A DNA stretch of 64,000 bases from Candidatus Omnitrophota bacterium. GTDB lineage: Bacteria > Omnitrophota > Gorgyraeia > Duberdicusellales > 4484-171. Below the pieces are notes generated by a model, which saw only the letters and a program-made list of their open reading frames with translations, searched no databases and was not told the origin of the DNA. The translations under genes and the position numbers were made by a program. Positions within the stretch are counted from its first letter, which is position 1, and every line of letters begins with the position of its first letter. The DNA lies in NCBI GenBank assembly GCA_021735655.1, contig JAIPGM010000001.1, positions 160,001 through 224,000 of the forward strand. Reading direction: 5' to 3'. Shown in pieces: positions 1,036 through 50,467 of this stretch.

Positions 1036-4000
1036 CCTTTGGATAACGGAAAAAGCGAAAAAACTAGTCCAATCGTGCGAGCTCCGCCTTTAGATAATGG
1101 CAAGCAAAGCAAATCTCACCCGGCAGTAATTAGCGAATATGAGGTTTCACGGTTTGTGGCTAAAATAGCTCAAACCCGTCGTCAGGAGATGAGGGTAAAT
1201 ATTCGCTCTAGCTTAGGCCTTGAGTCTTTTATTAGTTTAGTTAAGGGGGAGCGTCTTGAAGCCCTTAGAGAAAAAGTTATAAATTTACATCAATCCGGTG
1301 TTAGGAAGATAGTTTTGATGAACGCTACTGAATCTGGTGGTGGCGTTGCCGAGATGATGCATGATATTGTTTCAGTTATGTGCAGCGCTGGAATGGCTGC
1401 TGAGTGGGTTGTTATGGATGGCCACAGTGCTTTCTTTAATGTAACTGTGCATATTCATGAAGGACTTCAGTCGCCAGCCAAGGAAGATATTTCTTTAGAG
1501 GAAATAGCTTTGTTTGACGAAGCCAGTATCGGAAATTTTGAACGCCTTGAGCAGGATGGTTACTTTGATGGACTTGATTTATTTTTTGCCGAAGACCCTC
1601 AGATAGTCGGTCTAATACCATTGATCAGGGCTTTTTATCCAGAGGTTCATCTTGCTTGGCGTTGTCATATTGACACCTCTACTCCTAATCGTCAAATTGC
1701 CGAATTTGTTAGCGATATGGTTAGCGGCCGTCTTGATCCAGTACGGGATAAATTACTCTATGACTATCTTTTAAAGCGTTTAATGAGAGAGGGTATGATT
1801 GGAGCAGCAGTTGATTTTGAACAAATGATGCAGGCTAATTCCCTTTCGGTTAATCTTGCCCAAGTTGCGACTAGAAGATTGTTGGCCGATATAGCTATTT
1901 ATCACACCGAAGAATTTGCTTTAGGATTACATCTCCAAACTAAAGGCGTGCCAACCTTTATTATGCCTCCGGCAATTAACCCTTTTAGTTATAAAAATAT
2001 TCCCCTAGCTGATAATTTTATTCGGGCAACTATGGTTAAATATGGTTTAGATCCCAATAAATTTACGGTTGTTGAAATATCACGTTTCGATCCTTTTAAG
2101 GGGCCGCTGGAGGCCATTCAGGCTTTTGTGCGTTTATTTTTGGATAATCCGGGATTGCAGAATGATTTACAATTTGTTTATGCCGGAAATATGGCTGACG
2201 ATAACCCTAAGGGAAAACGCGATTTTGAAAAGATCGATGCCTATTCTCGCTATCTTAGAAAGAAATTTCCTAAACTTAGGAAAGCCTTGTTTTTGCTCGG
2301 TCTTGGGAATAAACCCGGGACAGTAGCCTTAAATTGGGCCCAGAGACGCAGCTTGCGTGTTGGTGGTCAGTTTGCTCGGCCATTTTCTCGGAAAGAGATA
2401 GGTCGACTCAACGGTGTTGAGATAAATGCTCTTGAGGTTAATGCTTTACAGCAACAACTTGAGATGGAAAAAAGAGACGGTAGGTTAGTTATTTCTTTAC
2501 CGCGTAAAATAGCAATACAGCCTTCATCAAAAGAAGGTTTTGGCTTAGTGGCGGCTGAGGCTACCGGAAAAGGTACTCTGGTTATCGCTTCTTTGATCGG
2601 TGGCCTTAAAGCGCAATTAAAGGATTTGCTTGCGCAAGCTTCTTGGTTGGGCATTAACTATACGCCGGAGGAAATTAGTCAATCTTTAGAGGTGTATGAC
2701 TCAATGGATTCTGATCAGCATAGAGGTGTTGTTTTCGATGTGGCTTATTTGGAAAGAATTAATTTATATCAACGGCTTAATCAACGAGAATTCGTTTTGG
2801 GTTTAGCTACCTCTCTGCGGGTGGCTTACGAACTGGCTCATAAAAATCCAGATGTCTATCGAGAGCTCGGTTTAGCTGCACGTTGCCAGACTTTAGATAA
2901 GTTTATTACTCTAGCTAATGTTGAGAACCGCTTAGCCGCCGCTTCCTTGATTGTTGATAATCAGCAGCCCTTGGATAATGGTAAGCCAGAAGTTCCGATG
3001 CCTTCTTCTTATTGGATCGATCATAGCCTTCTTCATGAAATTGATAATGTTTGGGCTAACTTGGATTGGATTAATCCCGGGCCAAGTTTAAGCATAGCTC
3101 GCCAGATTGAGAAAAATTTTAAGCCAGCACAAGAGCCAGGTTTTTTAAGAGTTAGCATAGATGCCTTTGGTCCGCTTAACGGATTTAAAAATCAAGTATT
3201 AGCTGAACATGAGCAGTATTTTGATTCCGAGGTTTATAAAGATTATCGAGCTGGCATAATTCATGCTATTGATAATCTTTGGCAACACGGCGGAAAGTAC
3301 GGTGCCTTATTTTTGATGGCTCAGCTTAGAGGACGAACCGTACGCTTTACTTATTGTTTGCTAGATCGCGGTGATGGTTTTATTAATGACGATTACAACC
3401 ATGTTCGTTTAGAAGAAGCCGTTCAGGCACATAGAACATTTAAACGAGCCGGCAAGAATGGTATGGGCCTTTATTATATGGCGATAAAGCCGGATTATTT
3501 TTCAATCACCGCGGTTAATTGCTACCGGGCTGTTGCCACAACTCAAGCTCACTATTGGGAAACTGGCTACACTAAAGAATGGCCGTTTTGCCCGCAACAA
3601 ACTCCGGTTAACAAGGGGGTGCGGGTGATTTCGGTAAAGGATGTAGCTTTAGGCCTTTTGCCATTTTCGAATATGCAGCCGTTAGATAATGGCCGTCGAA
3701 CTGATGAAGAACGCCTGGATTTTATCGGATTTTTAGTTGAGTCATATTTAGAGGCTTTATTTACTTTCCGGAGGTTAAGAGCAAATAACAGCGAAGTAGC
3801 CGAGATGTATCTGCCAGCAATTTCCGAAACTGCCGTTAGAAAGAAACGAGCCAAATGGGTAGTTACAGCTGTTGAGGTTGCCCGTGAGGCATTTCAGGTT
3901 ATGGCTCGAGCTGATTTTCGACATTCATCCGGCTTAACCATTCGTTCAATCTTTGATTCAATTTTGGCTTCTGGCGGTCGCAACCAAGCAGCTAATGATC

Positions 4001-7000
4001 TAGGAGTCGATCGCGCTAGCCTTACTCGCTGGATGCATAGCTTACCTAATGATTTATTAGGTGGGTTAGATCCAGAATTAGCAGTCTTCAAACAAAGAAT
4101 CCTTGATTTATTTGATGAAAACAATACTCGACCCCTAGACAACGGTAAAGAAAATATAGATTTATTAGCGGTTACAGCAGTTAAAAGAGAGGACACCTCA
4201 CCGTGGCTGGCGGGCCCTCTCTCTGCTGTAGCCCCTATATATATAGGTAAACAGCAGGGGCCGCTAGATAACGGCCGAGCGCCTTTGGATAATGGCCAGC
4301 CAGCTAACTTTTGGAAAGTTTTGCATTCTGGTATATACGTACTTCCGATATATTACACTCGACTTTTCGATACAGCTAAAGACGCAGGAATTGGAAAATA
4401 TACTTATGTAGTGCCGTTTGTTCGTGATCATGTATTGTCTTTAGGCCATCAAGCGATACTTTTCTTACCGTTTTCTTTGCAGTTACCTTGGTCGCAATCT
4501 CCTTATGATGCGGCTGATTGGCGTTATTTTAATACTGATTATATTGATTGGGGGCTTATCCCTGAGGCTCAACCTTTTCTAGGTAAGTTCGATTATTACG
4601 GTCATTCACAGCGTAGCGTTGATTTTCGATCAATCCGGCCACGTGAATTATTAATCGGAAAGGCCGCCTTTCTTAATCTCAGAGACAATCGAGAAAAACA
4701 ATACCGCCAGCGCTGGGAAGATTTTCAAAGGTTTGTTAACAATCAGCGAAGTAGAGGGCCGGAGTGGGATTTAACCCATCTTGGTCATTACCGGGCCTTC
4801 AATGATGTCTTGGGTAATGATTTTGGTTTATGGGTTCATGAAGGGATGTATTGCCCTAGGCAGGATACCCATCCAGATGTTATCAAGTACAACGTTGCTG
4901 AGCAAAATAAAAATATGCAATATTCAGATTTAATTCAGTTCTATCAATACCAGCAATGGATTGCTTTCGGCCAGGCTCGCGATATGCTTGAAGGTTTGCG
5001 CAATATTGGTGTCTTTTATCTTTTAGATAATCCTTTCTTTCATGCTAAGGGTGGTATTAATTTTTGGACCCAAAACATCATTTCAAGAGATAGGCATTAT
5101 GAATTTTTTGATCGTTCACCCGGTGTACCCGGAATCGGTAGTGACCCTGAACAATTCTGGACATCTTTGGTTCCTTGGAATTGGCCTAGATTAAGAGAGT
5201 TGGACTATGAACCTTTCTTAAACCCTTATCATTATTATTTAGGTGATTTGGGCGCTCAGGGAGTTCGGGCTGATGCTATTCATTTTCTTTTTCCTTGGAT
5301 TCATTGGGAACGCGGTCCTTATGCTGCTAATTTTCAGAGTTGGGAGTCCCCGGGTCATGATTTACTTTGGAGATTAGACAACGTTTTTAATTCTTATGGA
5401 GCTTTCAGGCTTGGCGAGTTACTTGGCCCGGGTTTTGAAAGTATTCAGAGAATGGGCTTTGATAATTATCACTGGCATTTCTATCGGATGTGGAAATGGG
5501 GTGGCGGACCTGATTTAAATCCGGGTTGGAACGCAAAAGCTTTAGAGTTACATGATGGGCCGCGGGTTTGTGTTGACCATGAACACGGGTTCTATCCTTA
5601 TGCCGGACACGCTTATTTACGGCATCGTTTGGAGGGCCCGGGCGGTCTAAAAGAATTAAATAGTCGTTTCCTTTTAGGCAGTTCGGATATAGCTATGGTT
5701 TATGCCGGAGATGAAGTAGCCGACAACTGGTGGATAAATAACCCTAATCTGCCTGAGTGGATGATGGATCGTAATTGGGCCACTCGAATGCCAATGCAGG
5801 GCGATCAGGATTTTGATCTTTCAGTAGCCTTGTCCATGCTTGAGCATCGCCGTTGGATTGGCCAGCGTCTAATTGAGCGGACGCCTTTGGATAATGGTAA
5901 GCAAGAGTTTAATCATCTTAGCTTGGTTGAATCTAACGGTGAACAAAAGTTATACTCAGCCAGTAGTTTAGTAATATCTCAAAGGGGAGTCTATTTAAGC
6001 CCGACATCAACCGGGCCGAAAGAGGTAATTTCTCAGATTCAACTTAGCCCAAGCGGAATTAAAGTTTCCGGGGAGTTAACTAGCCAGGAGCCAAAATCCC
6101 GGCCAATAGATTATCGTCACTCTTATGAAATTAACTTTTATTTTGAAAAATTAGCTAAAGCCTATGGCCGCGGTTTGTTTGTCGGTATCAATGACGTACA
6201 GCTTTGGATTCGTCTTAGCCAGGCTTTGGGTGATTTTTTATGGGGCGTTTTGCGTCTTGAAACAGGGATTTTTGATATTCCCGATAGAAAATTACGACGC
6301 CTGGTGATTCAGGAAGCGCTTTATCATGAGGTGATGACTAGTGCCTTGGGGCTTTCAGTGGCTAATCGCGGCTTGCGTGAGTTTTTTGCAACCATTTTAA
6401 GTGTCAGCCATTTTTGCTATCTTAGCGAGATAGCTAAAGATCAGGATAAGCTTAATTATCGTTTAGGGATTCTGCAAGCTCTTGATCGGGGTTTAATCCA
6501 GATGAGTGATTCACTGGCTGGGCTATACCGTCAAATTGCCGAGTCTGGCAGTTTACCTGATCCAGCAACCTTGGTAAAAGCAGTTATAACCCATATTAAT
6601 GAAGAAGAACGATACCATAGTGACCGGCGTTCATTTAGGGATTATGTTCGAACTAAGTCCGAGAATTTTAGCGGACGCTTTACAGTCGGAAATCTTACCC
6701 AGGCGGTATTAAATGATTCAGCTTTACAGTTAGAGTTACAGGCAGAGTGGACAAATTTCTTGGGATTTTTAGCTAATTCACAAACCGTAGCCCGTGCCTG
6801 GCAGCCGAAAATTAAATTTATAAGAGGTCCGCGGGGCATAAAGGTTATTAATCCCCAAGGCGTACCGGATCAAGGCGGCTATCAATTCCAGCTGCAAAGT
6901 TTCCGGGCAATTTTTGACTGTTTGGGTTTGCCTAATCCGCTTAGTGAGCCAGCTGCCCTAAATAGATATTTAGGTTTTCTGCCTGAGCCTCCTGAGTATG

Positions 7001-10000
7001 ACTCCCAAGCCGTAAATTTACCGGAGTTAAACATCAGTCAAATTTTACCCGGAGTAGCTGTTGTTTATCCGGATAGTTTGGAAGCTAATCAATTAGCGGT
7101 AAGGCGAGCTTTGTATGAATTGATGAATTTTCGGGTTTGGAAGTTAGCCGTTGAAATACGTGGCGCCTTAGGTACAGAAGATGCTTTGTTTTTTGATCAG
7201 CATTGTCAGGTACATTCCTTTGTTGATGTAGCCCAAGGGTGGATGTTAGATTTAAATCCCCAAAGCCCGATAGTCTATGATGATGTTTTACCCGGCGGCC
7301 AAGCTTACGAAGCGCCGGAGCAGCCGGATTTAGCCGAACATGAGCGATTGCATCAAAAGGCTCAGGCAGTTTTTTCAAAAGTTTGGGCAATCACTATGAA
7401 CAGGTTCTTGCGGGATCAGCGGATGTTTGGCGGTGAAGCCGTGGGTTTAGTTGGCTTTACTACAACCGTACCAATATTATATCGTTACATACAGCAATGT
7501 AAGCATTCTGAGCCGGAATACTCACTACAGCGACCTTTGAATAATGGCCTAGGCATACTTCAATATTTACAATCTTTACGTCGTAGCCAGGAAACCGAGG
7601 CTGCTAGAAGGGTTAGTCTAGACCAAGGCTTTGGGCAATTAAAAAGTTTATTAGTTGAAAAATTACAGTCGATTGATTCAACCACTTTAAGCATTGCAAA
7701 TCTTGATCAGGCTTTGAATGAAGATAGCCAGGCGATATTTTTAACCTTAGAGCAATTAAGAGAGGCACGCTTTCAGGCTGAGAGCTTTCGTAATGGGCAG
7801 GTAAGTATGTGTGATCTTGCTAGCCTAGCTTTGGCCGCTGCCAGCGAAGAAGTTTTTGGCCAGAGACACTTAGTTAAAATAGTTGTTGGCTATTATCGGG
7901 TTGATGAGCAGCTATATAAAAAACATTATTGGGTTGTGATTGATGAAACATTGTTGATTGATATAACTTATGGTCAGTTTGATCCGGACCATCTCAATCG
8001 TATTTTAGTTGCTACAGTAGATGATTACTTGAGATTAAAATTAGAATATGGTACAGAGTTAGAGCCGCTTGATAATGGAAAACAAACTCAAGTTCAGCCT
8101 ACTTGTTTAGAGGCTAGGTGGTGGAATAATTATTATCCCGGGGTTATCGAAGGAACTGGAATAAGGCCGACTGCCCGCTCACTTAGCTTTGAGCAGATCG
8201 AAGAAGTGGTTTGTCTATTACTTCTCGATCAAGCCGGCCAGGAATTGGTAGCTAAAATAATAAATAGAGAACTGCCCGATGTATATCCTTCGGTTCGAAG
8301 AACCGCTCTTAAAGCTATGGTCAGGTTCGATCATTACGAACTTTTTGGCCCGAAGATAATTACTTGTTTGCAGGATGTAGTCAGAGATGGAGCTGAGATG
8401 TATCAGCCTTTTGCTCTTTATGCTTTGGCTCAGACCCCGGCTTTTAATGGCCCGGTTGCCAATAGATTTGCCGAGGAAGCACTTAAGGGGACCCTTAAAC
8501 CAAGCCCAAGAAAGCCTACCGCAGCCGAAAAAACTGCCTTACAGGAAGGGTTAGAGCCAAATACTCAAGCGATTAGATTTAAATCCCGGCTTGCTTCAGT
8601 TGAATATTTAAAAGGAGTTTTAGCTCAACGTCAAGGTTGGGCTCGGGTTTGCCTCGGAACAGTACCACATTTTAGTCGGGTTAGCAATCGCGCTTTAATC
8701 AATAAATTTGCTGCTCAGGTATTAGCAGCTGATAAAAAGCTTTCTTCTAGTTCAGCTCAGCGACGCCAGAAAGATAAGTCAGAATTTTGGGGTCTTGAGC
8801 AAGCTGAGTTTATTCATCCAGCTACTGGCCATGAAGCTTTGGTTGAGCTGGCCAATGATCCGGAGTTATCATCTAGTGATGAAAGTCCTTTGGTTGATCA
8901 AATACTACATCAGATGGAGGAATTAGGTTATGTGCCGATATTGCGACCCAGTAAATTTCAGCTTACTGAGCCAGCTCAAGGTCAGGAAGCTGAAATTGAT
9001 CGCGAGGCGCTTTGGACCAAGGATGCTGTTTTGATGATTTCTACTAAATTCGGAATAGTTCCGGTTTCTTCAGCATTAGCCAATCTTAAGGGCGGTGAGT
9101 TCGTCAGTGGCTATGGTAAGCGCGGCAGCTTTATGATTATTCCGGCAGCCGCTCTAAATTCAAAACAGCAGCTATCTGATATAATTCCCGAGGTTCCGAT
9201 TCATGTATTTCCTTCGGGATTTTTGGTGATCAATGATCAGGGCGTAATTCGTTTAAGAGGAACCTCGCATATTGACACTTCTTTAGGAGCAATTCCGATT
9301 ATGGCCCGGCCAGAATCAGGCCAGTTGATGTTAATCGATCCTTTGTTGCATCAGGTTGCCCGTACACACCCTCGCTATCGCGATCACTATCAATCAGTAG
9401 TTCAAGAAGATGGAGTGCGTTTTATTGATGTGCCCGAGCCTGAACGTCATTTAAATCCTGCTAATTTTGGTATTCTTCCCGGTGGAGAAATATTTATGCC
9501 TTATGCGCCGCGGACTAAACAAGTTTTAATTGAGGCTGGGGTTAATGAGCAGTATATAATAATGTTACCAAGTGAATTTAATAAGTATTTACCAACCCTT
9601 CATGTTTTGGCGGGGAGTATTGGCTGTTTAGTGGCCCAAGCTTTTCATCCGGTTGAGAAGCGAGAGCCGCTCGACAATGGCCATGAAAAAGAAAAACGGC
9701 AAACTAGATCCCGAGCAATAGATATATCAACCAAAGGTGCTGAAGATTTATTGTTTACTGAGCTTCAAACAGGGAGTTTAGTTAGTTTAGTGGTTGATGG
9801 CCTTGAGTATTGGCTTAGCCTTGACCAGGGCGATGAAGTTTGGTTTGATTTATATCGGCCTAAAGATGATATCATTGGCTATATTTATTTTCGAAATGAC
9901 GCAATGCCAGCCAGAAAAATAGCCAATTTTGGCGGCCCGAGCATTGTTCCGGCTTACCGGGGCAGGCATTTGTCGCGAGTTCTTTATTTTGTTTATTTTC

Positions 10001-13000
10001 GTTATCTTTGGCGCAATAATTATATCCCTGAAGAAGACTGTTTGACTATCGATGATCGATTGGCCCTAAAGCTTTATCATGAAGCTAAAAAGTTTTATTA
10101 CGATCAAGACCATACCTTTACTCCGTTTCAGATTATTCCCCGAGCCGAAAAGACTAAAGCTGCAAAACCTTTAGATAATGGCCACGATATGGTTCAAAAA
10201 CAATTATTTGAGTTAATTAAGCGTAAGTCAGATTCGATTAAAACTTTCTTAGAGCCGTTTGAAGCTTGCCTTGCTTACAATGGAGTGTTAGCTTTGCTGA
10301 TTCGAGGAAGGCCTGACTTGAGCGTTAAATTTTTGCTTAAGAAGATTGGCTCGGCTGAGCATTGGTTTTTACTGGCTGAAACTGTTTTAGGAAATCATCA
10401 GTTTGTGGTTGATATTTCGCCGCAAGGAAAGATGTTTACCGATATTGAGGTGCTGGTTGTAGATTGTGCTGAAGCCGGAAAAATAAATTATCTATATGAA
10501 GATTATACTGTAGTTAGCGATCAAGAAACCGAAAACTTATTGCGAGCCTTAGCAAGACAAAAAGGGATGAATGAGTTCTTGCATTTAGTTCATCAATTAC
10601 CAGAAGAAAAATGGATAGGTAGGTTACCGGATAGTGACCAGTCGATGCCACTTGATAATGGTAAATTAATCAATGAAGGTTCAGAAAGTTCTTTTTCCGA
10701 TATAACTAATTCGATGCGGGTGACTTTTGTTATGCCGATGTACAATGAACAGCAACGCTTACTTCCCAAGACTTCTGATAATCCCTATGGTGAAGATGCT
10801 TTAAGGGTTAAAGTAAGTCAATTTAGAGAACTCGAGCAAGAAAATCCTAATTTCCAGTGGCGGCTAATTGCCGTAGATGACGGAACTCCCGGGTTTGCTT
10901 CAGCCAAATGCCTTGAGCAGATTTTGGCTGAGATTGATGCCCAGAATCGGGAATTTAATATCTATTCTAAAGTTTTCGTAGTGGTGATAACTGAACAAGA
11001 AAAGAAACTCCTAGGCAGCCGAAAGGGTGGAGCGGTTTTGCGTGGCTTTCAAGAGGCCCTAAGCCACGGTTGGGCTGATTATATCGGGATTACTGATACT
11101 GATATTTCCAGTAATGTTAACCAAACTAAAGATTTGATTTTGGCTCTTCGCAAAGGTGCTGGAGTAGCCATTGGTTCACGCCGCCAAAGCGGGGCCGAAG
11201 CTCGCGGCATACCGCTTTTAGGGAGAGTTAGCACAGTTATTTATAATTGGTGCATTCGTTTGATTTTGTGGCCGCTTTTTTCAATTCGTGATACCCAGCG
11301 CGGTTTTAAACTTTTTCAAAAAGAAGTAATTGTCAGAATATTACCCTATGCTCGCGATCACCATCTTTCTTTTGATACTGAACTGTTACTTTTGTCGCGT
11401 TTAGCCGGATACCAAATAGCTGAGGTGCCGATTGTCTGGATTGATTCAGCTGAGGCAACTACTTTGGTTATGTCTAAAGATGCTCCAGCGATGCTCTGGC
11501 GAGTGATTAAACAAGCCCGCCATATTTTTAATAATCCTTTTCGCGGCCAAAAGCCGCTCGATAACGGCCGAAAAATAAATCTATCAGTTAGAATGCTCAG
11601 AAAAGCTAGATTAATTACTGTTCATGTTGATGCTGGAGATTGTCCAGCCGCCTTAGCTAGCGCGATTGATAAATTAGTTTCGGGTTTAGGGCAAATCCAA
11701 GTAAGCCGTAGTAATATTGTCTTAAACACCGCCCATCAGAATAGCCCTATGGATATTGTTTCGTCGGTAGGCTCTCTCTCAACTGAACAGATAACAACTT
11801 TATTTCCTGAAGCTGTTTTTCTGATTGCTGGCGGCAATGTGTTTAAATGCTTAAGAAATCTAGTTGAGTCATTGGCTGTCGGCTCAGTGAACAAGCGAAC
11901 TGTTAGGATTTTTGTTCTTTACGATTATACCTATGGCCAAGGCTCTAATTATAGCCCTGAGCAATTAGCCGGTGAATATTATGATTATTTTAGCGATATG
12001 CTTTCAGTCTATAGTGATAGGTTTAATCTAGCTGTATTTTATCTTGCTCAGAATCAATTCGAGCAGGAAATTTACGGTAAAAATTTATCCGGGCCCAATT
12101 TATCTTTAGCAATTATTGAAAAAGAAGCTTTAGCTAGTCAAGTACCTTTAGATAATGGGCGTAGTCTTGGGGAGTTAACTGCCGAAGGCTACAACTTAAA
12201 GTTTCTAGCCCGCAGTTCTGATTTAAGAATGACTGCCCATTGCCGAAGAGATGTAAGTTTTAATAGTTATCTTTATGATTATCGCCTGGATCCAGAGCAT
12301 ACTTATCGTCAAGCCCAATTAGTTCCTTTAGTTGCTCGATCGGTTAAGGAAAATGCTTTTAGAAAGTCTTCTGATTGGCAATACTTGCCGCAGCATTTGA
12401 AAGATTTATACGATTCCGGTAAAGTTTTGATGATTGCTTCCCGAGCCCAAGCTAAAGCTAAGCCTAGCCGGTATTCAGCCTTAGTAATTTCTGGCAGGAC
12501 TGAGGCTTTTAGCGGCCGGATGGGTATTTTACTCTATGACAATCGGCCGATCATTGTTTCAATTTTAGATAAGCCTTTTTTCATTGAAGCTAAAGGAATC
12601 GGGGTTGCTCAAGGAGGTTTTAGCTCAGTGCATCGGCGCTCGGGCCATAGATATGAAGTTACCGGGGCTCAGCGTTGGCAAGCTTCCTTAAAAGAATTTA
12701 CCAGTTTAGAGCTTGAGCGAAAAATCAGCCGATTTTTTGGAACAGCTGATACCCCACGCGCCTTAGCGGCGATAGTCTATAAATATCCTCAAATGGATCA
12801 GTTAATTAGTGATAGCCTAACTAGCCAGGCTGAGCGAAGAGAAGCTAAAGAGCAGTTAGGCGATAGTTTAGGGATAATGTTGCGGCTTTCGCCTTCGAGC
12901 CGCCGCTTTGCTTATAATTTAGAACAGCGTCACATTAGAATGCTTGGTGAAGCTTCAGCCCGCCTGCTTTGTTCTTATCTTCCCCGAGTGCATACTTCGC

Positions 13001-19000: not shown

Positions 19001-22000
19001 CTTTAGATCTAGGGAGATTACTGGCAATGAAGAGTTTTGATGACCAATTACAGGGGGCGGTGGTTTGGATAGCTAATCCAATTAACCCGAAAACTAAAGA
19101 GCCAGTATTTGGTCCTGCTGATGTGGACAGAGTAAATCAAGCTCTTGCTGAAAGAGGTGTTACTGCTATTTGGGGTGATCAGACAGTAGTAAATGAACTA
19201 ATTTATCAAAAGGCAACCGTGCTTTTTCTGGCTGCAACCGCTAATGTTATTAGTGAACTTTCTCAGGTTGAAAGATTGCAGGTTAAGATTATTTCTGAGG
19301 GAGCTAATAATGCAGTTAAACCTGAGTTAAGAGAGCCTTTAAGAAAAGCTAATGTATTTTATATTCCTGGTGAGCTTCTTAACGGCGGGGGCATATATGC
19401 TTCTAAGGAAGATATTCGGCATAACCATACCGATGGATCAGAATTAATAAGGCAACATCGGCAATACTATTATATACATGTAACTGATGAGATCGACACA
19501 TTGGCTCTTCACCGAATGATTTCTTTCCTTGAGATTTGGGCTGAGTCAGCAGGAAATTTTTCTTTTGATTTAACCGTCCATGTAGAAAAAGTTGCCGGCC
19601 GGATTTTTGAAGCAGCTGATAATTTGGTAAGAACCAATAATACACGTTTGAGAAAATTTACCCAAATTGATCAAAAGAGAACCTTTGATCATCAAGCCGG
19701 CCGGCCGACTTTGCCTTGGCGTCATAGTCTTTATGAAATTGCCATTGAAATGGCACCAATGGGAATACTTTATCATTTGCGGGATGTCGGTAGACACTTA
19801 TCTTTACTTAATAGATTTAAGGTTGCAATAAAGGAAGATGGTCAGATAGATAATTATCATATATGTCGTCTGCGTTTTGCTTTATTTGAGTTGACCAAGC
19901 TAGGCTATTATTTAAAAAGTAACCAGCGCAGAAGGTTAATCGGCCTTCTTCCTGGAATAATTACCGATGAAAAGTGTGATGGCCTATTAAGGAAAGATGC
20001 CATGTTTTGTTTGGCAATGGCAATTAGGTGGCAGGAAGAAGAATCCTGTAAATCTGAGGTAGATCGGGCAAGAAAATTATATTTAGGCATATTACAAAAT
20101 CCCCTTGAAAGTGCTCAGCTGCATACCTGGGCTCAGCATTGTCTCTATAGGATTTTCGGAGAAAATTACTTCCGGCGGATAAGCGCTGATTTTGATCGCT
20201 TAAACGGAGTTAACTTACCCAAGCCGCTTGATAACGGTCGGGATAGTTCGGTCGGGATTACCTCAGAACCGTTAAGAATTTTAGCCGAGCTAATTTCGAA
20301 TAGTTATCGGACTAAGGCTTTAGTAGAATTTTTGCAGCCTTTCTTAGATTGTGAATCTGTTAATTATTTACAAGAAGAGATAGCAAAGCATTGCCAGCTA
20401 CCGGCCTGGGGTGTTGTTTCTTCTAGCCATTATCTTGATGAAGGGTATTTCTATTATGGTTTAAAATCCGGTATTGATCGCTGTCTCGAAAGAGGAGTTA
20501 TGGTTGAGAATGACGGTAACAGATTATACGTTACTAAAGATTCAGAGGATACCGTAAAATATAGCGGCCTTGACGAAACTCAAGAAAACCAGTGGGGAAT
20601 TTTTATTTTTCCAAGCGAGTATTTCAATCAGGCTATCAATTGCGGTTATGCCGAGGCCGGCTTAAGGCTTTCACATAACCGCTTAGGCATAACTACTTAT
20701 CCATACTTCAAAAGTTCTTTATCGCTTGCGCCGGCACGCTTTCTGATAATTGATAGATCTAAGGCAGATGAACATAGGCACCTGGAAGGCCAGCCGAAGC
20801 TAAAAGATAAACTTCAAGCCTTGACCGAAGCAGGATTGAAGGTTCTATGGTTGCCGGATTCTTCCGGCCCATTCTTTGACCCTGATTTCCAATATGCTTT
20901 CGGGGAGTTGTTGTTTAGTAATGATATTCCGGAAACCAATCGCTTTCTTTTTTATCCGTCCGCAGATACTCAAGATCTTACAAAAATCATCTGGTGGGTT
21001 TTACAGTCGTTAAGAATGAGTAGTATAAAAAATCGGCTATTACATAATATGGAGTTAGCTCGGCAATTTAAAAAAATCGGCCCCTTTGATAATGGGCGAG
21101 CTGATTTTACAACAGCAGACGAACAGATCGGTAATCTTTTTGCTGAGGCAGTTATTACAGGAGATAATGTTTTAATTGAGACTCATTGGGATGCTGTAGC
21201 GGCTAAGAGAGGCGGCAGTTTGAATATTTTAGAACATGCTGGCTTAAGGATTACAAGAAGTTTAGCTTTAGGAATTGTACCGCGGGCTGGTGAATGGCCG
21301 GATAGGGTTGAAACCGATCAAATCATTCTGAGTTCATCTCGCTATGGTTGGATCGATTCTGAAAGAGATATTGAGCATTTGTTAAGCGGCTTTGATCAAG
21401 CCAGATTGCTTAATTCGTTTAATCTTGGCCATTATTATCAGGGTTGTCACTATCGAAGTTTCCTAAGCTGGCTAGCGGTTTTAAAGAGTAGTCATTTCCC
21501 GGCAGTTATTTTTCATTTCATAGGTGAGCTAATTAATTCTTGGGGTATTAAGCCAGCTGCTAAGAGTGATTTTCCAGTTTTGGCCAGTCGAAGGGATATC
21601 TTTTCTTTCGTTAGCGTGCCTTATGTTTCAGATATAGAAAAATTAGATTTGCCAGTTGCAGTGTTTTTTGATGGTAAGCTTAGTTCGCTTAGGCGTGGCG
21701 ATAGCCGGAAACAGCCAACTTTAATATTAGCTTATTGGCAAGCTTTGAATGGTTTTATTGGTTTTAAAGAACAGATAGCTAGGGAAACAGCAGAATTTCA
21801 GAATACCCCTTTAGATAATGGCCGCAAAGAGCATGACATCTCTGATAGTACGGTAATCCAATGGCCGCTTAATGTAATTGTTAAAGATATGCGCGGTTTA
21901 TCCAAAGGCGAGATATTAGCTGTTGTTAAAACCGGTAAAATATTTTGGGGAAGGGAAATAGTAGGAGCTATTTTTTCTGACCGCAATATTGTTTTTGGTA

Positions 22001-25000
22001 AAGTGGTCGATGATAAGTTTATAGTATTTGATGATTGGTTAATTGAAAGAATTCCTGGAGGATTGTTAGAGGGGTTGCGGAGAAGCATTTTATTTTTGCC
22101 TTATTTAGGAAGTATTTTAAGAAACAAGACATCGTCAATAAATAAACCCCTGGATAATGGCAAGAAATATAATTATCGGCAAGTCCTAGAGATGGTTGAC
22201 TGTTTTGATAGTGCAAGGTTAGAGGCTCACTTATTTAGAGCTCTTGGCAGAGTTGAGACTGAAGCCGTATCTATAGCTGGTGATATTATTAGGGCGGCTA
22301 GAAAATTTGAACGGATAACTAAAGCAGTAAAATCTCTTTATAGGAAAACTTACGGCAAGCTACCTAATTTTACTCTTGCTTTCGATCCTTCCGGTCAAGG
22401 TATGTATGGGGCGTATCAGGAGGATGATACAGCCGGATTTTTTGATCATATTGGCGTAGCTCCAGAAGATGTGCTGCTTGAGGTAGGCAGCGGCGATGGA
22501 AGCATTTCGGATTTCATGGCCCATATGTTTGGGATTAAGGCAACTGGGATTGAGGTTTGGGAGCCATATTATCATTACGCAGTTTTCTTAAGAGATGAAG
22601 CAGTAAGAAGAAGATTCATTCCAGAAGGTAAAGTAGATTTTTTAAATAATAATTTAGTAGATGTTGATTTTTCAAAGTATTCTTTAGTGTACTACGCTGC
22701 TCTTGGCACAAGAAGAAAAAGTGAGCTGGCTGCTAGATTGCTTGGGGTAAGAGAAAAATCCAGGATATTAATTCGGGGTTCACCTGATGAGTTAGTGGAA
22801 GGGATTATCGCATCACATCCTGATTTTAGCTTAAGGAAGCTTGAGATAGAAGTTAATGAAAACCTTACTGGAATTAAGGCAAGGGTTTATACTCGAGAGA
22901 CAATTACCAGTTACCAGCCGGTTCTCGACGTTCCTCTAGATAATGGCCGAAAAAATAACCCTCAGATGGTCAGAGCGCGCTTAGCCGCATTTGAAAAATC
23001 AATCGAGGGCATCGTGCCTAGGGCAGATCCGCTTTATGACCATTTAATTCGTTTTTATCAATATCCTTTGAATAATTTGGGTGAACCTGACGAAGAGACC
23101 TATGTAAGGAATAATACCAAGGAGCAGGAGCGGGAGCTTCTTAGATTCTGGGCCGGCCATTTCGGCCTTCCTAAAAATTACGGCGGTCATGTGACTATCG
23201 GAATCGGTCAGGCTGAATATTATGCCATGTACGTGGCTAGCAATCGATTTCCCAAGGCTATATTTTATATTTCTAATCAGGTCGATAGCCTTCTTTATGA
23301 TACTTTACAGGTGTTGGGCATTGATCAAGGAAGAATAAAGTTAATTAGGTCTTTAGAGAATGGCGAGATCGACTATGGTGATTTAAAGAGAAAGATTAGG
23401 GAGAATTCATCATGGCCGGCGGTGGTCTGCTTGACTGCTGGCAGATTCCTGGGGGCGGTTGATGATTTAGGAAAAGTGGAAGGAATTTTAGGGAGCCTGG
23501 GCCTAAAGCATAAACATATTCATTGCAGCATGTCACCGTTAAGTATAGGCCAGTCGTTTTTGGAAGATGCGGCAAAGATAGATTTTCAACATGGCTTAGA
23601 TAGCATGAGTCTACCGTTGTATCATTTTGTAAGGTGTCCGATGCCAGGAGTCATCGTTCTTACCAGAAGGAAATACCTTCAGAACATTGCTTGTAGTCAA
23701 AAAGCAGCTGAGTATGTTAACTCTAACGACACCACTAATTCTGGATCACGTAGTGGTCATGCTCCGCTTTATCTTTGGTTTGCTACAAAAGTTATTGGGA
23801 CTAAAGGATTTAAGGCTCAGGCTGAGCGGGCCAGGGAAGTTTGTGTTTCTATTAAAGCTCTATTTGACCGTTACGGTTATCCTTGCCGGTTCACCGCGCA
23901 AAAAAATACAATAATCTTTGAGCCACCATTTTATGAGTTGCGTCAAAAATGGGGCTTATTATCACACGGGCAATGGTCCTGTTTTGAGATTGTACCTTAT
24001 TTGACCCCGGTTGAGATAGCCGAATTTGTAAGTGATCTTTTAGGTGATCATTCTCAAGCGGTAGCCGCCCCGGTAGAAACCGTATTTCCGGAACGGATTG
24101 TCTATGAACCGTCTCCGGAAGTCTTAGATGTTTTGGATCAATTAGAAGCAAGGATCCAAATTTTGATGGAAAGATTTTTAGGATTTCCGGCAAATATCGC
24201 CGGCAATGAGACATCTTTTGCTGCCTTGAGCAGCTTGTTTAAATACACCTTGAGAAAAAAGGATGTGGAAGGTTTTCGACACGAAGCCTTGAAATTTTTT
24301 ACTGATCTTTACGGTTTAAGGTACGAAGATTTTTACTGCGGCATAACTGCTGGAGGAACCTGGGGAAATCGGGTTGGCCTATTAGTTGGCCGGGAAAATT
24401 TTCCCGGCGGGATACTTTATTACAGTCAGGATTCGCACTACTCGATTGATAAAGTGGCCAGGAGCCTTAACATGGAAGTAAGAAAGGTCGCCTCTTTGTC
24501 TAACGGCCAAATTGATTATGATGAATTAGCCGAAGCCATAGAGGAAAATCGTGGCCGCCCGGTAATTGTAAATCTTAACATCGGCACAACTATGAAAGGC
24601 GCTATCGATAATCCCCAAAGAGTTATTGAAATATTAAGAGAACAGGATGTTACTGATTACTATATCCATTGTGATGCCGCGCTTTTTGGTATGATTTTAC
24701 CGTTTCTCGAGGCTGCGCCAAAAATTGATCTGGCTAACGGCGTCCATAGTATTGCCATATCCGGACATAAATTTCTCGGCCTACCGATGCCTTCGGGCAT
24801 ATTCATGGTTCGGAAAAATTGTGCTAGGGATAGATTGATAACTATTTCGGATCGATTATTGACTGCCCAAACTGGCCATGTCATTTTGTATTTTTGGCAG
24901 GCTGTTGCTAGCCGAGGGTATGAGGGTTGCAGAGAAGAAGCTATGGCTTGTGTGGATAATGCCCAATATCTTTATTACAGATTACAGGAAAGGGGATTGC

Positions 25001-28000
25001 CTTCGGAGGTAAACCCTTTTTCCAATATAACAATGTTTTCCCGGCCATCGGGTAGCCTAATTGACACTTGGCAGTTAGCGCCTTGCGGGGACCGCGTCCA
25101 CGTAGTGGCCATGCAGCATGTTACCAGAGATAAGATTGATGCTTTTGTCCAAGAGTTAACTAGGGATATGCAGCAAGGGCAGATAGAACTAGCTAGTTCT
25201 ATGCAGCCTCTTGATAATGGTAGACGGCGCAAAGCATCGCTAGTGCCAGAGGTAGGCCTTGATGAATTAGTTGAAAAACATTTAGGAAACTTGAAGTTGA
25301 TATCTTCTGAGTATGGAAAAAGCGTAGGCATGTTATCTACTATTTTAAGACGACCAGACAATGAGAGCCTTCAACAAAGAGCAGAGGAGTTGAGGAAGAT
25401 TGGTCCTGGCCGTCTGGCCTTAGCAGCTGACTTAGGCGAATTCGGAGTAGATAGTTTGAAAATTGGTCAGAAGTATGGCGTTGGCCGAAGAACAGCGGCT
25501 AGTTGGCTTGTTAATAATGGATTTGGCGATAGGGTTAATAGCGCTAGATATAGTCGAAGTAGAACATTAAGACGTCAAAAAATAGCTCAGGAATATGAGC
25601 CGATTGCTCGCTTATTAGATGGTGAAGGCAATCTTTTACAGACATTTTATACCCATATTTCTTGGAAAGAGGTATCTGCTTATCCTTTCGCTGTTTTAGA
25701 TGAATTAGAAATCCAAGCTACCGAAGTTTTAAGTTATGGTGGTAAGCAATGGGGTCAGTTTAAGGGGCATGCTGGCCATAGAGCTCGGATAACATTGGAG
25801 TGGGGCTATCCAATAGAAGTTGCTATGTCTAGCAAAAGAGGAGTTGATCAAGGTAGCTATAGAGCCATGCAGCTTAGGACCTATCAGTCAACTCTTTTTG
25901 ATAGAGAGGGGGAACTCTTAGATACTGCTTTTTTCGTTTTTGGTTACGATGAAGATTTATGTCGGGGAACAACAAAAGTTGTTAACTATCAATTAACCAA
26001 GGCTGGAAGAATTAGTATTTTTGGTGATGAACAAATACAGCTAATAAAACATAAACAAGCCTGGGCTAATTTAGTTGCAGTGGATGGAAAGGTGGTCAGG
26101 GCTACCATTCTTGATAGAGAGGGCGGGAATGAGGTTATTACTTATAATTTTTCTCGAGTGTATGATGAAAACAACCGAGTAATTTACACTTTTACTGGAG
26201 GTTTAGAGTTTAAGCAAAGCAGTGTGCCGCCTGCGTTGTTGAAATCTTTAGCTAGAGGAAGAATTGAAGGTATTTACCTAAAAGGTGGTCGTGGCAACTT
26301 AACTATTGGCGGCAGAACTTGGGTTGTTTTAAGTGACTATAAAAATTATCCATGTAGGGCTTATATTGAAGAAGGGCTTGTGGTCAGAGTAGAGGTTTTA
26401 GGTGAAGAAGGAGAGGCTGTTTTTACCAAGCATTCTCACCGCCTTTATGATAGAGAAGATAACTTTGTCGAAGTATTTTATGATTCTATTTCACCAGAGC
26501 GACTTAACCAGGTTGGTTTGTGTCGTAGCAGTCCACTTATTGTGACTCCTTCAGGAGAGTTATGCTTATCTGGAAATCGTTATACTTTTGAAAATGAAGG
26601 CGGCTCTAAGGCTATTGTTTGGATTGAACCCGGAGTTAAGTTCACCAGAAATAGAAAGCCGGATGGTAAAGCAGTTAGAATTGATTTTTATGATCAATAT
26701 ATGCATTATAAGCATACCCGTTATGCAGTCAGAATCTATGAAGATGAAGGAGTTTTAATTGATACTTTTTTTGGTCCAGGATATGCTGAGAAGCTAAAGA
26801 TTTTTGGTGATGTAATTGGCTTTGCTCAACTCGATACGTTAGGTTCTCTTAATATTGGCTACACAACCCATACCTTTACTAAATATGGTGACCCTCGACA
26901 TTTTGTTAGATTTAGTCTACACCAGGCTCAAGTTCTGGATGTAGATGTTCTTGGCCATGACTATTGTCATATCGATAGAGTTGGCTTTGACGCTTGGCCT
27001 GATATGGCTATCGATCACTTTGAAATGGCCCGAATTGTTGATGAGCAGGATCAGCTATTACACACTTTTTGGTACGGTGTTTATTCAGAACGGATTCCCA
27101 ATAGAGGTAGAGCTAGAATTTTAGGGGCGACTTTTACTGCCGGAGGTCACCTGCGACTTGGTAACGAAGATGTTTATCATGATGCGAACTTTCCCGAAGC
27201 TAGAGTAAATGTTACTTATATTGACGGAGAAGTAAGTGAGATATTAATTTATCAGGATGCTCAAGGCAACTCAGTAAATTATCATTATACTAAAAAGCAG
27301 ATAGATAATTATAAGCGCAGAGTGCAATATTATAATCTGCGCGGTCATGTATTCGAGCATGCTTTAAGAGTTGCCTTACCTTTTTTAAGCGACTGCCCTT
27401 TTGATTATCAAAAGCGCATTGGTGGTGAAGTTGATGGGTGGGTTGATGGTGAAGCTGAACCAAAGCCAGCTGATTCCAGATCACTTAAACGTCCAGATTT
27501 TACTAGTCCTTTTAGCTGGGCAATGAGTGAAGGGGTATTGTGCTATATTGATGCTAAATTCAATCTTAGAATTAAGTTTTTAATAGAATATCTAGAGGCA
27601 ATTAAAGAGACTTTAAGAACTGATTATTTTACTGATTGTGATGCCCCAGTTGAAACACATTTTGTAGGAAGAGTTATATTTGAGATAGTTTATTTAGGCA
27701 GAGTAAGTGAAGCTAATGTAGAGGCAAAGTTAGCTGGTCATCAGAGAAATTTTTCAGCTACCAATTCTGAGATGCTCACCTTGAAACCAGTTAGCTTTCT
27801 TGATGAGTACGGAGATAGGCTTAAGACCGCTGGTCAGGATACTTTAGTAAGGTTTCTGAGACATCTGAGAGTTTTTCATTATAAGCCAGGTCGCAAGAAA
27901 GCCTTAGATAGCTATTTAGCCCAATTAGAACAGGATAAAATTCCCGAGATAGCCGATGAGCAGACTAATCTTTTTTCAAGGCCGCTGGATAATGGCCGAG

Positions 28001-31000
28001 AAAGATTATTGGTTAGTAGCGGTAATAGTCATTTAAAAAGTTTTCGTGAGGCGAAAGGTTTATTAGCAAAATTAAAATGTACAGACATTTTTGGGGTTGT
28101 CATGGGTTATCGCGCTGCCTTAGCTGATAGAGATAATTATCAGAGAGTATTTGCTCGTGATTCTGTTTGGATGGGGTTAGCCGAAATGCTTTCCGGCTGT
28201 AAAGGTAGTTTAGCTTTAACATTAAGCGTATTAAAACATCATCAATGTCGGTACGGACAGAGACGCGGGGCTATTCCGAGTAACATTTCAAGGTATCATC
28301 GGGTAAGTTATGGGACAACTAGCCCAAGAATTGATCCAACCCTTCTTTATATTGTTAGTTCTGGCCAATATTATCGGTCCAGACCAGCCTATTTTCAAAA
28401 ACAGTTTCTCGTTGAAAATTTATCGCCGCTACAAAAAGCTATAGCATATTTAGAAAGACAATGGGTTATGGATAACGGTTTATTGTTTATTCCGATTGCC
28501 GGAGATTGGGCTGATGAATATTTTCAACAAGGCCTTGTTTTGTATGATGAAGTTTTATGGTATATGGCACTTTCAGAGTATGCCTACCTTTTAGCTGAAG
28601 ATAATAATTCTAATTCAGAAGTTTATCAAGCTAAGGCTGCTTGGGTAAAGAATATAGTCAGATCCAAATTTTGGATAAATAAAAATCCCGGTCAAGGCAA
28701 TTTGGGGCATTTCCGTCATTTTTTCAATCAATTACAAAGCCCGAATCAGGCAGCGACATTTGGCTGTCCCTATGATAGCTTTGATGCTTTTGGTAATATT
28801 TTGGCAATTCTTTCCGGCGTGGCTACAGAGGAGCAAACTGCTCAGATAATTAAATATATTGATGTAATTTCAGAAAATAATCAGCCATTACTGGTGCCGG
28901 CACATTATCCGGCAGAAGAAGTTGAACATTTTGTTCACACAGGTGCTCCGTATCGGTATCAATTTAAGAATAATCCCGGGTGTTATCATAATGCTGGTTT
29001 ATGGTCATGGTATACAGGTTTATATGTTGCGGCATTAGTGAAAGCCGGCCGATTAGACCGGGCGGCTAAATTTTTAGAAGGGGTACAGCTAGCCAATGAA
29101 GCTAAGGACTCAAATGGCCGGGGGTATCATGAGTACCATACTAATATTCCCGGTCAATTGAGTAGGCCGGGTGGAGTTAGCAATTTAGGTGTCAGCGCTG
29201 CTGGTTATATAATAGCTCACCAAGCATTTTTTAAAAATAAGATTGTTTTTGGTCAGAATCATCCTTTAGACAACGGCCGTCAGATGCCTGATTATTTTTC
29301 TCCGGTTGGAGACGTCAATGTAACTCTTAATAGTTCTTCAGAAAAAGCCCCCCTTGATAACGGAAGAAATTATTCCAGTTCGCCAATATTTCAAGAGACA
29401 ACCTTTACCTATTGGTTAAGAGTGAGTTTATATTTATTAAGATTTTTGCTTAGTGCACCTTATTATTTTATTATTACTTTAGTTGTATCAAGAATGATGA
29501 AAGGAAAAAACATTTTATTTGTATCTTACCGTATTAATGAATTTGCTTTAGATGGAGTATCTTTAGAAATAAAAGAGTGGCGAAATCTTTTATATCGATT
29601 GGGCGCACATATTTTTCTATTTTCTGGTCATAGCAAAATTGTTCAGGATGGAAGTATCACCGGTCAGGCTCCGGATTGCATTGAGAGTGATTTTCTTGCT
29701 GAACAGGCAACAAAAATAAGAGAGAAGATTGAAAGAGAGGGAAAGCTAGATGCTGAAGATTTTGAATTAATTCATAGAGCAAAAGAGATAATTAAACGCA
29801 ATCTGCGTAAGTGTATCTTGGAAAATAATATTCACTACATTGTTTCGGAAAATGTATTTTGTCTACCGGGAAACCTCGCTCTTGCCGAGGCACTTATAGA
29901 ACTTGCCGAAGAGTTTCCTCGGTTAGGTTTTATTTCTCATAACCATGATTTTTGGTGGGAACGATCCCGCTATTCAAAACATATTCGCACTGATTGTGCT
30001 AGTTACTTAGATAACCTTCATAATCGAATCCGTCGCCAAACAGTCGTTGTTATAAATCAAGGCCAGTTGAGAAATATTTCAGATCATCTCGATGCTGGTT
30101 TGCACAAAGTATTTATTGTTCCGAACGTAAGAGATTTTTCCCGAAAGCCAAAAGTAGATCATTCGTGCGTAGCTAGGCTTAAGACTTATCTAAGACAGAG
30201 GCACGGGATTACTGAAGATTGCCATGTATTTTTAGCACCGGTAAGGCCCGTTTATCGAAAGAATTTAGAACATGCTATTGATGGTTTGGCTAAAGTTCAG
30301 GAAGAAATGGGGGAACCTTTGCTATTTGTTGTAAGCCATAGCGCCCAAGATTCTCAACCAGGTTACGTTGACCAACTAAGAGCTCGGGCTGAAAGCCAGG
30401 GTCTTAAATTTGTTTATCTGGGTGAAGAAGTGCTTTCCGGTCAGTTTAGCTTAGAGACGATATATGCTTTTTGTGATATGGTCATTGTTACTTCTACCTG
30501 GGAGGGTTGGGGTAATGCCACGCTTGAAGCATTTTATTACCAGAGACCAGTTATTGTCTGGCCGTACCAGGCTTACCAAACCGAGATAAAGCCTGTAGGG
30601 CTAAGTTGCTTAGAGGCGCCTGAATTTTCTTCTGAGGTCATTACTTCGATAATTACGGTTTTACGATTTACTTGGTTGAGAAAAAGAATTGCTAGAGGGA
30701 ATTATTGGTTAGCTAAATTACATTTTTCTTACCGAAGGCTTACAAGAGTATTTTTTAAAGTATTTAATAATTTAGAATCTGCCGAAACCAAAACACAACA
30801 ATTTCCGCTTGATAATGGTAAAAAGGGTGAGGGTTCTAAACCAAAACAAAAATTATCTCCTTTCGAGAGATTTAAACAAGACATAGACGAGCTTCTTAGC
30901 AATCCCCAAATCAGGCAAGTAAGCGTAGACAGTATTCTTCAATTTTACGGCCCACGGCTGAAACGCGATGTTGTTGAGGCCCATCTTAAAAGTAAGGGTT

Positions 31001-31038: not shown

Positions 31039-31041
31039 AGG

Positions 31042-31070
31042 TTGCTTTAAGACAAGCCTTAAGGTATAAT
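31042..31070 (+). promoter_or_regulatory. Candidate sigma70-type promoter immediately upstream of the peptide-binding protein gene: TTGCTT, 17-bp spacer, TATAAT. The predicted start site is about 2 nt before the ATG, so the transcript would be leaderless.
   Basis: -35 TTGCTT at 31042-31047 and -10 TATAAT at 31065-31070. No Shine-Dalgarno before ATG 31079. Confidence 0.35.
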
Positions 31071-31078
31071 TACTTTCA

Positions 31079-33763: not shown

Positions 33764-33791
33764 AACGATAAGTTAAGATTGAACAATAAAG

Positions 33792-34886: not shown

Positions 34887-34901
34887 CTTTTTAATTTTAA
34901 T

Positions 34902-35867: not shown

Positions 35868-35873
35868 TAGACT

Positions 35874-48741: not shown

Positions 48742-48747
48742 AGTTAA

Positions 48748-49566: not shown

Positions 49567-49591
49567 ATAAGCAAAATTGTGAAAATTTAAG

Positions 49592-50464: not shown

Positions 50465-50467
50465 AGG

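Follow-up and report, generated by a model that had tools for sequence, protein, structure and literature searches.

PLDNG junction peptides in a giant multi-enzyme open reading frame of an Omnitrophota bacterium: a candidate polyprotein with paired sites and putative excised spacers

A giant open reading frame and its PLDNG junction peptides

The DNA analysed here, referred to below as the window, is a stretch of 64,000 nucleotides (nt) from a Candidatus Omnitrophota bacterium (assembly GCA_021735655.1, contig JAIPGM010000001.1, positions 160,001 to 224,000 of the forward strand), and all nucleotide positions given for it are counted from its first letter. The window contains a giant open reading frame (ORF) in which enzyme-sized modules, here numbered M01, M03 and so on, follow one another and are separated by a recurring short peptide with the core PLDNG (Table 1). 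An independent Logan assembly was 100% identical to the window across positions 21079-42797 (21.7 kb), including the fourth of the motif doublets described below, and the giant ORF is thus not an assembly artefact.

All of the exact PLDNG copies in the giant ORF lie in a single frame, where 0.009 would be expected from composition, and the remaining five frames and the rest of the 64-kb window contain no copy. The extended form PLDNG[KRH] was observed 27 times against an expectation of 0.001 (P~6e-108), with the residue after the glycine (+1) being R at 16 sites, K at 9, H at 2, Q at 1 and G at 1. All six leucine, four proline and four glycine codons occur within the motif, and the 29 copies, when compared pairwise, agreed at a mean of 11.76/15 nucleotides, against 11.83/15 expected from the codon usage of the ORF. 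Because synonymous codons vary freely, selection acts on the peptide, and these results showed that PLDNG is under strong purifying selection as a peptide and not as DNA. Information in the flanks stays below 1 bit per position, and hydrophobic, structured sequence is back within a few residues on either side, so the hexapeptide is essentially the entire linker. Neither Shine-Dalgarno enrichment nor a consistent in-frame start was detected at the junctions of this ORF. Two near-misses were noted inside modules, namely PFDNGR in M22 (21082..21099, + strand, aa 7007), which would give pieces of 281 and 237 amino acids (aa), and PLNNG in M09 (7534-7548, aa 2491); these may be variant or decaying junctions. 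The only two sites followed by histidine both flank M11 (9667-10185 with the sites; 162 aa), a module that looks GNAT-like by eye.

The motifs divide the ORF into 30 pieces, comprising 24 of protein size (108-920 aa), five short ones (2, 12, 23, 24 and 38 aa) and one C-terminal tail. Module by module, Pfam identified a PNP/UDP phosphorylase, a TreT-like GT4, GH77, GT2, Bac_transf, a weak DHFR-like match, a PglC-like phosphoglycosyl transferase, a Glu/Leu (ELFV) dehydrogenase, a weak DOT1-like methyltransferase, a pyridoxal-phosphate (PLP) decarboxylase, a GH100 invertase and a GT1; at least 12 different families are present, each once or twice. Searches with Pfam and NCBIfam at permissive thresholds returned nothing for 13 orphan modules. 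No paralogy or tandem duplication was found among the modules of the giant ORF. The ORF lacks both a signal peptide and a hydrophobic N-terminus, and its four transmembrane (TM) candidates are confined to M16 and M18. The tail beyond the final junction (30820-31035; 72 aa) is basic, matches no family and is the sole piece of intermediate size.

The positions of the junctions were compared with the ends of homologous proteins. In a comparison with the 461-aa structure of a free-standing alkaline invertase, the C-terminus of M27 maps about 3 aa away from the end of that protein, and M16 starts about 25 aa ahead of residue 1 of PglC. Measured against its three closest free-standing homologs (P0037, P0045 and P0046), M13 ends 0 to -2 aa from their C-termini; relative to more distant free-standing homologs, its end scatters from -26 to +52 aa. 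As judged from homologous sequences, these comparisons showed that the motifs sit at native protein termini, between unrelated full-length enzymes.

At four places, two copies of the motif bracket a very short piece. The earlier note on this stretch had reported these doublets, and their translations proved to be exactly as it claimed, all in frame within the one ORF; the tiny module that it had described ahead of doublet 2 is likewise real, with a length of 37 aa (4150-4260), or of 38 aa from 4147 when the +1 lysine is counted. The five bracketed pieces have no sequence, length or Cys/hydrophobic pattern in common; they are polar and linker-like, and the one in doublet 2 consists of the two residues RA. 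In the DNA, the two 51-nt units of doublet 1 are identical at 23 of 51 positions, the motif copies of doublet 2 differ at 4 of 15 positions, all of them synonymous, and doublet partners overall are identical at 10-12 of 15 positions, compared with a mean of 11.8 for random motif pairs. Since the partners are no more alike than random pairs, recent slippage or duplication is excluded, and with it the slippage that the earlier note had named as grounds for giving up its reading of the doublets. Non-basic +1 residues were found solely at second members of doublets (2/4 vs 0/25; Fisher p=0.015), a pattern to be expected if paired sites are in part redundant.

Table 1. Features of the window discussed in the text
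Feature	Position (nt)	Strand	Description
Giant ORF	64..31038	+	10,324 aa; about 25 unrelated enzyme-sized modules and 29 PLDNG junction peptides
Motif starts 1-15	1036, 1087, 2968, 3679, 4132, 4261, 4282, 5884, 8065, 9667, 10168, 10648, 11554, 12145, 14332		PLDNG copies
Motif starts 16-29	15643, 15727, 16450, 17344, 17869, 20224, 21808, 22147, 22933, 25207, 27982, 29263, 29350, 30805		PLDNG copies
Doublet 1	1036..1104	+	PLDNGK-SEKTSPIVRAP-PLDNGK; between M01 (phosphorylase-like) and M03 (TreT-like GT4); spacer nt 1051-1086
Triple cluster	4132..4299	+	PLDNGK-37-aa mini-module (4150-4260)-PLDNGR-A-PLDNGQ; between M05 and M08 (GH77-like)
Doublet 2	4261-4299	+	PLDNGR-A-PLDNGQ; +1 of second site Q, non-basic
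M13	10663..11553	+	GT2, DPM-synthase-like, 297 aa; boundary ruler against other giant ORFs and free-standing homologs
M16			PglC-like phosphoglycosyl transferase; membrane module before doublet 3
Doublet 3	15643..15744	+	PLDNGR-QTISHFRSGEGQSRTGPTSRNF-PLDNGG; between M16 and M18; +1 of second site G, non-basic
M18	15742-16449		Multi-TM module after doublet 3
Doublet 4	29263..29367	+	PLDNGR-QMPDYFSPVGDVNVTLNSSSEKA-PLDNGR; between M27 (GH100 invertase-like) and M29 (GT1)
Opp/Dpp-type oligopeptide ABC importer	31079..36842	+	SBP_bac_5, two permeases, two ATPases; 41 nt 3' of the giant ORF

Junction peptides and paired sites in sister giant ORFs

Orthologs of the giant ORF were sought with two-halves-plus-tail k-mer and HMMER searches of 5.8 billion proteins, a GTDB genome scan, a Joint Genome Institute (JGI) metagenome scan and an exhaustive HMMER search against 1.84 billion representatives. 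No orthologous ORF was found in these collections, which yielded relatives of single modules only, almost all of them inside other giant ORFs. An unbiased k-mer screen, followed by inspection of context, was then applied to 62 of these giant proteins, each 1,500 aa or longer. It revealed RSE.R in eight ORFs (22 times in P0017, 14 in P0035 and 12 in P0004, among others; P down to 1e-37), KPGSSDME nine times in P0001, [SG]SP[VLIA] 12 times in P0016, nine in P0040 and ten in P0031, PPARSATVD three times in P0005, and, in the Omnitrophota contig L002, two copies of [GS]LDNGG. This contig holds the only M03 relative (53% identity) and is the only other carrier of the LDNG core; no LDNG enrichment was seen outside it and the window ORF, and doublet 1 is absent from the context of its M03 homolog. 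Recurrences in P0123, P0041, P0060 and P0013 were rejected as junction peptides, being part of longer repeated domains.

M13 allowed these foreign peptides to be placed on a common scale. On its N-terminal side, they lie at offsets of +14 (KPGSSDME), +15 (RSE.R), and +15 and +37 (SSPx), and on its C-terminal side RSE.R lies at -2, -3, -3 and +15. The GT2 module of P0035, 306 aa long between RSE.R sites, matches the 297 aa of M13 between its PLDNG sites almost residue by residue. These alignments showed that the junction peptides of sister giant ORFs, unrelated but just as recurrent, occupy homologous boundaries. In P0035 (L004 8001-22187, GCA_964562525.1), the third codon positions of RSE.R vary, and its serine is always encoded by TCN (0/14 AGY, p~0.003), with AGY making up 34% of the serine codons; this bias may reflect common descent of the junctions of that ORF or a residual nucleotide constraint. 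A different arrangement was observed in L003 (ENA ERZ1758449 NODE_291; ORFs 1754-9916, 10001-24838 and 24917-34441), a run of four consecutive giant ORFs in which a repeated mini-domain, about 100 aa long and bearing HExxH ('NPNTLRGPP...RVIFEGHELFHLL'), stands in place of a short junction peptide. The 5-mer FEGHE occurs there four times across the ORFs, twice of them in P0002, and the mini-domain may be a junction-associated zincin.

Doublets were present in 7 of the 11 motif-punctuated giant ORFs, whatever their neighbours. The spacers of the sister ORFs measure 29 and 30 aa in P0017, 17 aa in P0075, 38 aa in P0036, 5 aa in P0065, 14 aa in P0016, and 25 and 28 aa in P0040; P0001, P0004, P0035 and P0062 have no doublets. 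When the intervals of the 11 ORFs were pooled (n=130), 13 fell at 2-38 aa, none at 41-99 aa and 117 at 100 aa or more. An exponential spacing model predicts 17.6 intervals in the empty class (P=6e-9) and 13.4 short ones, so the count of short intervals is by itself not above random. What is non-random is the bimodality, and not the number of short intervals. Compared with the average of the protein, the pooled spacers are more polar, and with the exception of those of P0040 they are mutually unrelated. In addition, both ORFs of the SSP type that contain a GT2 module have a doublet directly upstream of it, with unrelated spacers (14 and 25 aa) and unrelated upstream modules, which hints that the paired sites matter and not the peptide between them.

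Proposed processing and its alternatives

We give an even chance to the explanation that the giant ORF encodes a cellular, bacterial polyprotein, which would be cut at its junction peptides by a dedicated, co-evolving protease and from which the doublets would excise spacers without a signalling role. Two hallmarks of polyproteins were found in the ORF: several independent, complete proteins in a single ORF (unrelated families, no paralogy, native ends) and a conserved short peptide at the junctions (29/29 PLDNG, in 27/29 followed by K, R or H). Under this explanation, about 25 complete enzymes of a glycan-biosynthesis pathway would be fused head to tail, and P-L-D-N-G-(K/R, rarely H) at each joint would serve as the recognition site of a sequence-specific endopeptidase, possibly a lineage-specific one, that releases the single enzymes. 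The turnover of motifs between lineages at the same boundaries suggests that site and reader co-evolve, and a tether of 6 aa between about 25 full-length enzymes, several of which presumably belong to families that normally form oligomers, argues for their separation. Where two sites lie 2-38 aa apart, cleavage at both would release a short, polar, non-conserved spacer, most likely a by-product and at most a steric or kinetic spacer like SP1 and SP2 of Gag. Speculatively, such spacers might have arisen from intergenic DNA (6-114 nt) that came to be translated after trimming on both sides, or from trimmed termini; ex-intergenic trimming would account for the ceiling of about 38 aa. The scissile bond might follow the asparagine, which would leave uniform glycine N-termini.

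Several observations weigh against the polyprotein explanation. First, neither the giant ORF nor the 33 kb downstream yielded a protease domain or family, and the AlphaFold2 single-sequence models of M19 and M04 reached a predicted local distance difference test (pLDDT) score of only 32-34, too poor for use. Second, L002 has no motif at the boundary equivalent to M03/M04, and P0006, P0010 and P0026 join GT2 and M18-type TM domains without a motif, indicating that fusion without a motif is tolerated. Third, the invariance of 29/29 exceeds that of most viral protease sites and might be a sign that the mechanism is chemical or ribosomal. Fourth, cleavage before the K/R would create arginine or lysine N-termini, which are destabilising in many bacteria. 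Finally, the two spacers of P0040 (aa 2665-2689 and 3216-3243) have a 13-aa block, KAKPLPQSIGRVS, in common, the single instance of a seemingly conserved bracketed peptide.

As to candidate proteases, signatures such as HExxH, GDSGG, GxCG and DTG yielded nothing convincing, C39, S8 and SecA had no match in the giant ORF, and the window contains no C39-ABC or peptidase gene. M19 (16465-17343) and P0001 (aa 861-883) have a Cys...His pattern in common ('CGCLVIRARNLFGMAHLSP' and 'CAALAIDDPSGNKHYLAHFTP') that is reminiscent of CheD-type hydrolases; M19 was rejected as a general protease on the basis of regular-expression and jackhmmer searches, in which this pattern appeared in no other giant ORF besides P0001. 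M11 and M12 were also discarded as proteases, as their homologs (P0115 and P0094) are N-terminal accessory domains of S-adenosylmethionine (SAM) methyltransferases. With regard to the GT2 and multi-TM domains, these are contiguous in one protein in P0006, P0010 and P0026 ('HIFNNPF-NEFLQKLNKVLLF'), and in the window M13 and M18 are separate modules 1,400 aa apart, each of which retains the NNxF boundary segment.

The alternative that survives best, which we nevertheless regard as unlikely, is that the product remains an intact mega-enzyme, with PLDNG(K/R) as a hinge or as a docking motif for a chaperone, scaffold or membrane-targeting partner and the doublets as longer linkers. The failure to find a protease in the ORF or the 33 kb downstream and the tolerance of relatives for direct domain fusions are both in its favour, as is the location of doublet 3 between two membrane modules, where added linker length could matter; moreover, a 2026 preprint on Omnitrophota treats the giants as intact, membrane-anchored proteins (bioRxiv 10.64898/2026.06.07.730766). 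However, a plain linker does not need five residues that are invariant at 29 of 29 sites, the motifs lie at native termini with just 6 aa between full-length enzymes, and a linker model predicts a continuum of lengths, whereas the observed spacing is bimodal. The complete turnover of motifs at the same boundaries fits co-evolution of a site with its reader; docking could also produce it, but less naturally.

Separation might also proceed without a protease, either by Asn-Gly succinimide self-cleavage aided by the adjacent aspartate or by skipping of the 2A/'StopGo' kind, the doublets then providing two independent breaks. Asn-Gly is the most labile of the Asn-X bonds, and the invariant short motif includes it; that conservation is limited to the peptide and that no protease was found would also agree with such a mechanism. 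We consider it improbable, because the motifs that occupy the same boundaries elsewhere (RSE.R, KPGSSDME and SSPV) have no asparagine and are hard to fit to one chemistry or to the ribosome, because known asparagine autocleavage requires a folded catalytic context, and because the junctions do not match the 2A consensus (D[VI]ExNPGP), with no proline at +1 and no conserved upstream nascent-chain element. A broader form of the idea holds that the junction peptides are a lineage-specific punctuation code by which one ORF would yield about 25 enzymes without a conventional trans-acting protease, through a 2A-like skip or Asn-Gly self-cleavage, with paired sites and spacers setting the order or efficiency of release; it appears slightly less probable again, and a polyprotein with a dedicated protease is far more probable than this code.

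The surroundings of the giant ORF bear on a further possibility. The proteins that flank it are exact matches to proteins of Candidatus Omnitrophota metagenome-assembled genomes (MAGs; MCF7907298.1 and others), and the nearest relatives are Omnitrophota MAGs. The 33 kb downstream encode the Opp importer and two ABC-2 exporters, together with glycosyltransferases, a methyltransferase, an amine oxidase and numerous radical-SAM enzymes. Six radical-SAM genes lie within 30 kb; of their roughly ten radical-SAM domains, three are paired with SPASM and three with B12-binding domains. The locus looks like a cluster for the synthesis and export of a glycan. Several of the genes at 39073-55805 are themselves fusions, including a 1,284-aa ORF with three radical-SAM-SPASM units, a 1,052-aa ORF with two B12-radical-SAM units and an ABC ATPase that extends into a tail of about 1,000 aa, and no junction peptide was found in them. 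Gene fusion is pervasive in this genome, and the punctuation is peculiar to the giant ORF.

The earlier note had taken the motif for a possible processing site that would release the bracketed peptides as a signalling or by-product output, with an oligopeptide ABC importer encoded immediately downstream. The importer is indeed there, the motif behaves as a processing or junction site, and the fallback offered in the same note, that doubled motifs are linker or efficiency features, fits the data, as does the view of the peptides as by-products; the signalling part found no support. That the peptides are bioactive, either as signals re-imported by Opp or as precursors of ribosomally synthesized and post-translationally modified peptides (RiPPs) for the adjoining radical-SAM/SPASM enzymes, could draw on the 41-nt distance to the importer, on the six radical-SAM genes within 30 kb and on the block common to the two P0040 spacers, and it is nonetheless very improbable. 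The five peptides are unrelated in length and sequence, with no repeated core, no conservation, no cysteine and no RiPP-type core features, and a dipeptide is among them. There is no signal peptide and no dedicated peptide exporter, the transporters being the Opp importer and the ABC-2 exporters; any peptide released would end up in the cytoplasm, whereas Opp takes up its substrates from outside the cell. Systems of this type are widespread as importers of nutrients, and we found no evidence tying this one to the spacers. The ABC-2 exporters, the glycosyltransferases and the enzymes that modify sugars account for the neighbourhood as one of glycan biosynthesis, other giant ORFs have doublets whatever their context, and the RiPP-precursor version is without positive evidence. 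An origin at the level of RNA or DNA, or a trivial one (internal starts, a DNA repeat or recombination scar, slippage, chance), is hardly credible and largely refuted for the giant ORF: the variable position of the sister motifs (M/V/T or M/I/L) resembles start codons and the uniform TCN serines of P0035 hint at common descent or nucleotide constraint in RSE.R, but in P0035 that position is mostly an Ala, Thr or Ser codon, the window junctions have neither Shine-Dalgarno enrichment nor consistent starts, nucleotide identity among motif copies is what codon usage predicts, doublet partners are no closer than random motif pairs, and the P value given above speaks against chance.

Known systems and implications

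The polyprotein explanation has its closest parallel in the viral polyproteins of potyviruses (NIa; TEV ENLYFQ↓G/S) and picornaviruses (3C), in which one ORF likewise encodes many unrelated mature proteins, a short recognition peptide marks each junction, the site sequence is lineage-specific and small leftovers remain between close sites (viral 6K1/6K2, 3B and nsp11). The giant ORF differs from them in being cellular and bacterial, in joining about 25 metabolic enzymes and in having more invariant sites (29/29), and its cleavage is a prediction only. In retroviral Gag, the sites around SP1 and SP2 are 10-14 aa apart and excise a peptide that is functionless when free, the spacer tuning cut order and accessibility; unlike the spacers described here, which show no conservation, those of Gag are conserved and structurally active before cleavage. 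Among bacterial proteins, the P97/P102 adhesins of Mycoplasma hyopneumoniae are multi-domain proteins cut at a short recurring motif, S/T-X-F↓X-D/E. They are surface adhesins with few, degenerate sites and, in contrast to the giant ORF, do not form strings of independent enzymes.

Multi-core precursors (cyanobactin PatE, yeast alpha-factor, prohormones) resemble the giant ORF in that repeated recognition sequences bracket short peptides freed by dedicated proteases. However, their cores are related products and the precursor is small, whereas here the sites mainly bracket enzymes of 100-920 aa and the short pieces are heterogeneous; neither related cores of similar length nor an export route or adjoining maturation protease was found. 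The junctions also lack the 2A/StopGo sequence D(V/I)ExNPG↓P with its upstream element. They do not follow the double-glycine pattern of C39 peptidases either: if the chain were cut after the motif glycine, positions -2/-1 would be Asn-Gly at all 29 sites in place of GG, GA or GS, and a Gly-Gly pair is present at the site at aa 5222 (PLDNGG) and in the LDNGG of L002.

The nearest relatives by type are the multi-enzyme metabolic cluster class of Omnitrophota and the Archaeovorins, which belong to the same phylum, exceed 10,000 aa and carry many distinct enzyme domains, with glycosyltransferases and functions in sugar metabolism well represented. The ORF described here agrees with them in its length of more than 10,000 aa and in its many families, none of them dominant. 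In those studies, the giants mostly have a signal peptide or are rich in TM segments and contain C39 or S8 domains, whereas the window ORF has no signal peptide, no C39, S8 or SecA domain, and four TM candidates in place of many. The available text of the preprint that defines the multi-enzyme metabolic cluster class (bioRxiv 10.64898/2026.06.07.730766) makes no mention of motifs, processing or cleavage. Post-translational cleavage with unknown cut points is raised as an open question for the Archaeovorins (bioRxiv 10.1101/2023.11.21.568195), the searched text of which reports no junction motifs or cleavage points, and a 2024 survey of huge proteins (PMC11573180) also leaves cleavage open, calling the proteases and their motifs unknown. 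Nothing relevant to PLDNG, RSEMR or any other of the junction peptides turned up in the searchable literature. Thus, lineage-specific junction peptides that punctuate giant multi-enzyme ORFs of Omnitrophota apparently have not been reported.

These findings bear on the open question of whether and where the giant proteins of Omnitrophota are cleaved. The junction peptides are explicit predictions of cut sites, PLDNG(K/R) in this ORF and RSE.R, KPGSSDME, [SG]SP[VLIA] and PPARSATVD in its sisters, and the k-mer approach provides a simple way to locate such sites in any giant ORF. The doublets emerge as a regular element of the architecture, with spacers that form a discrete class of 2-38 aa, and do not amount to evidence of peptide signalling. 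If cleavage does occur, the annotation of giant ORFs would change, since they would be split at the junctions, and possible new pairs of highly specific proteases and sites would become available to biotechnology. In that case, some bacteria would produce an entire biosynthetic pathway in the manner of a viral polyprotein, punctuated by a site code specific to the lineage, which would be a new form of pathway organisation.

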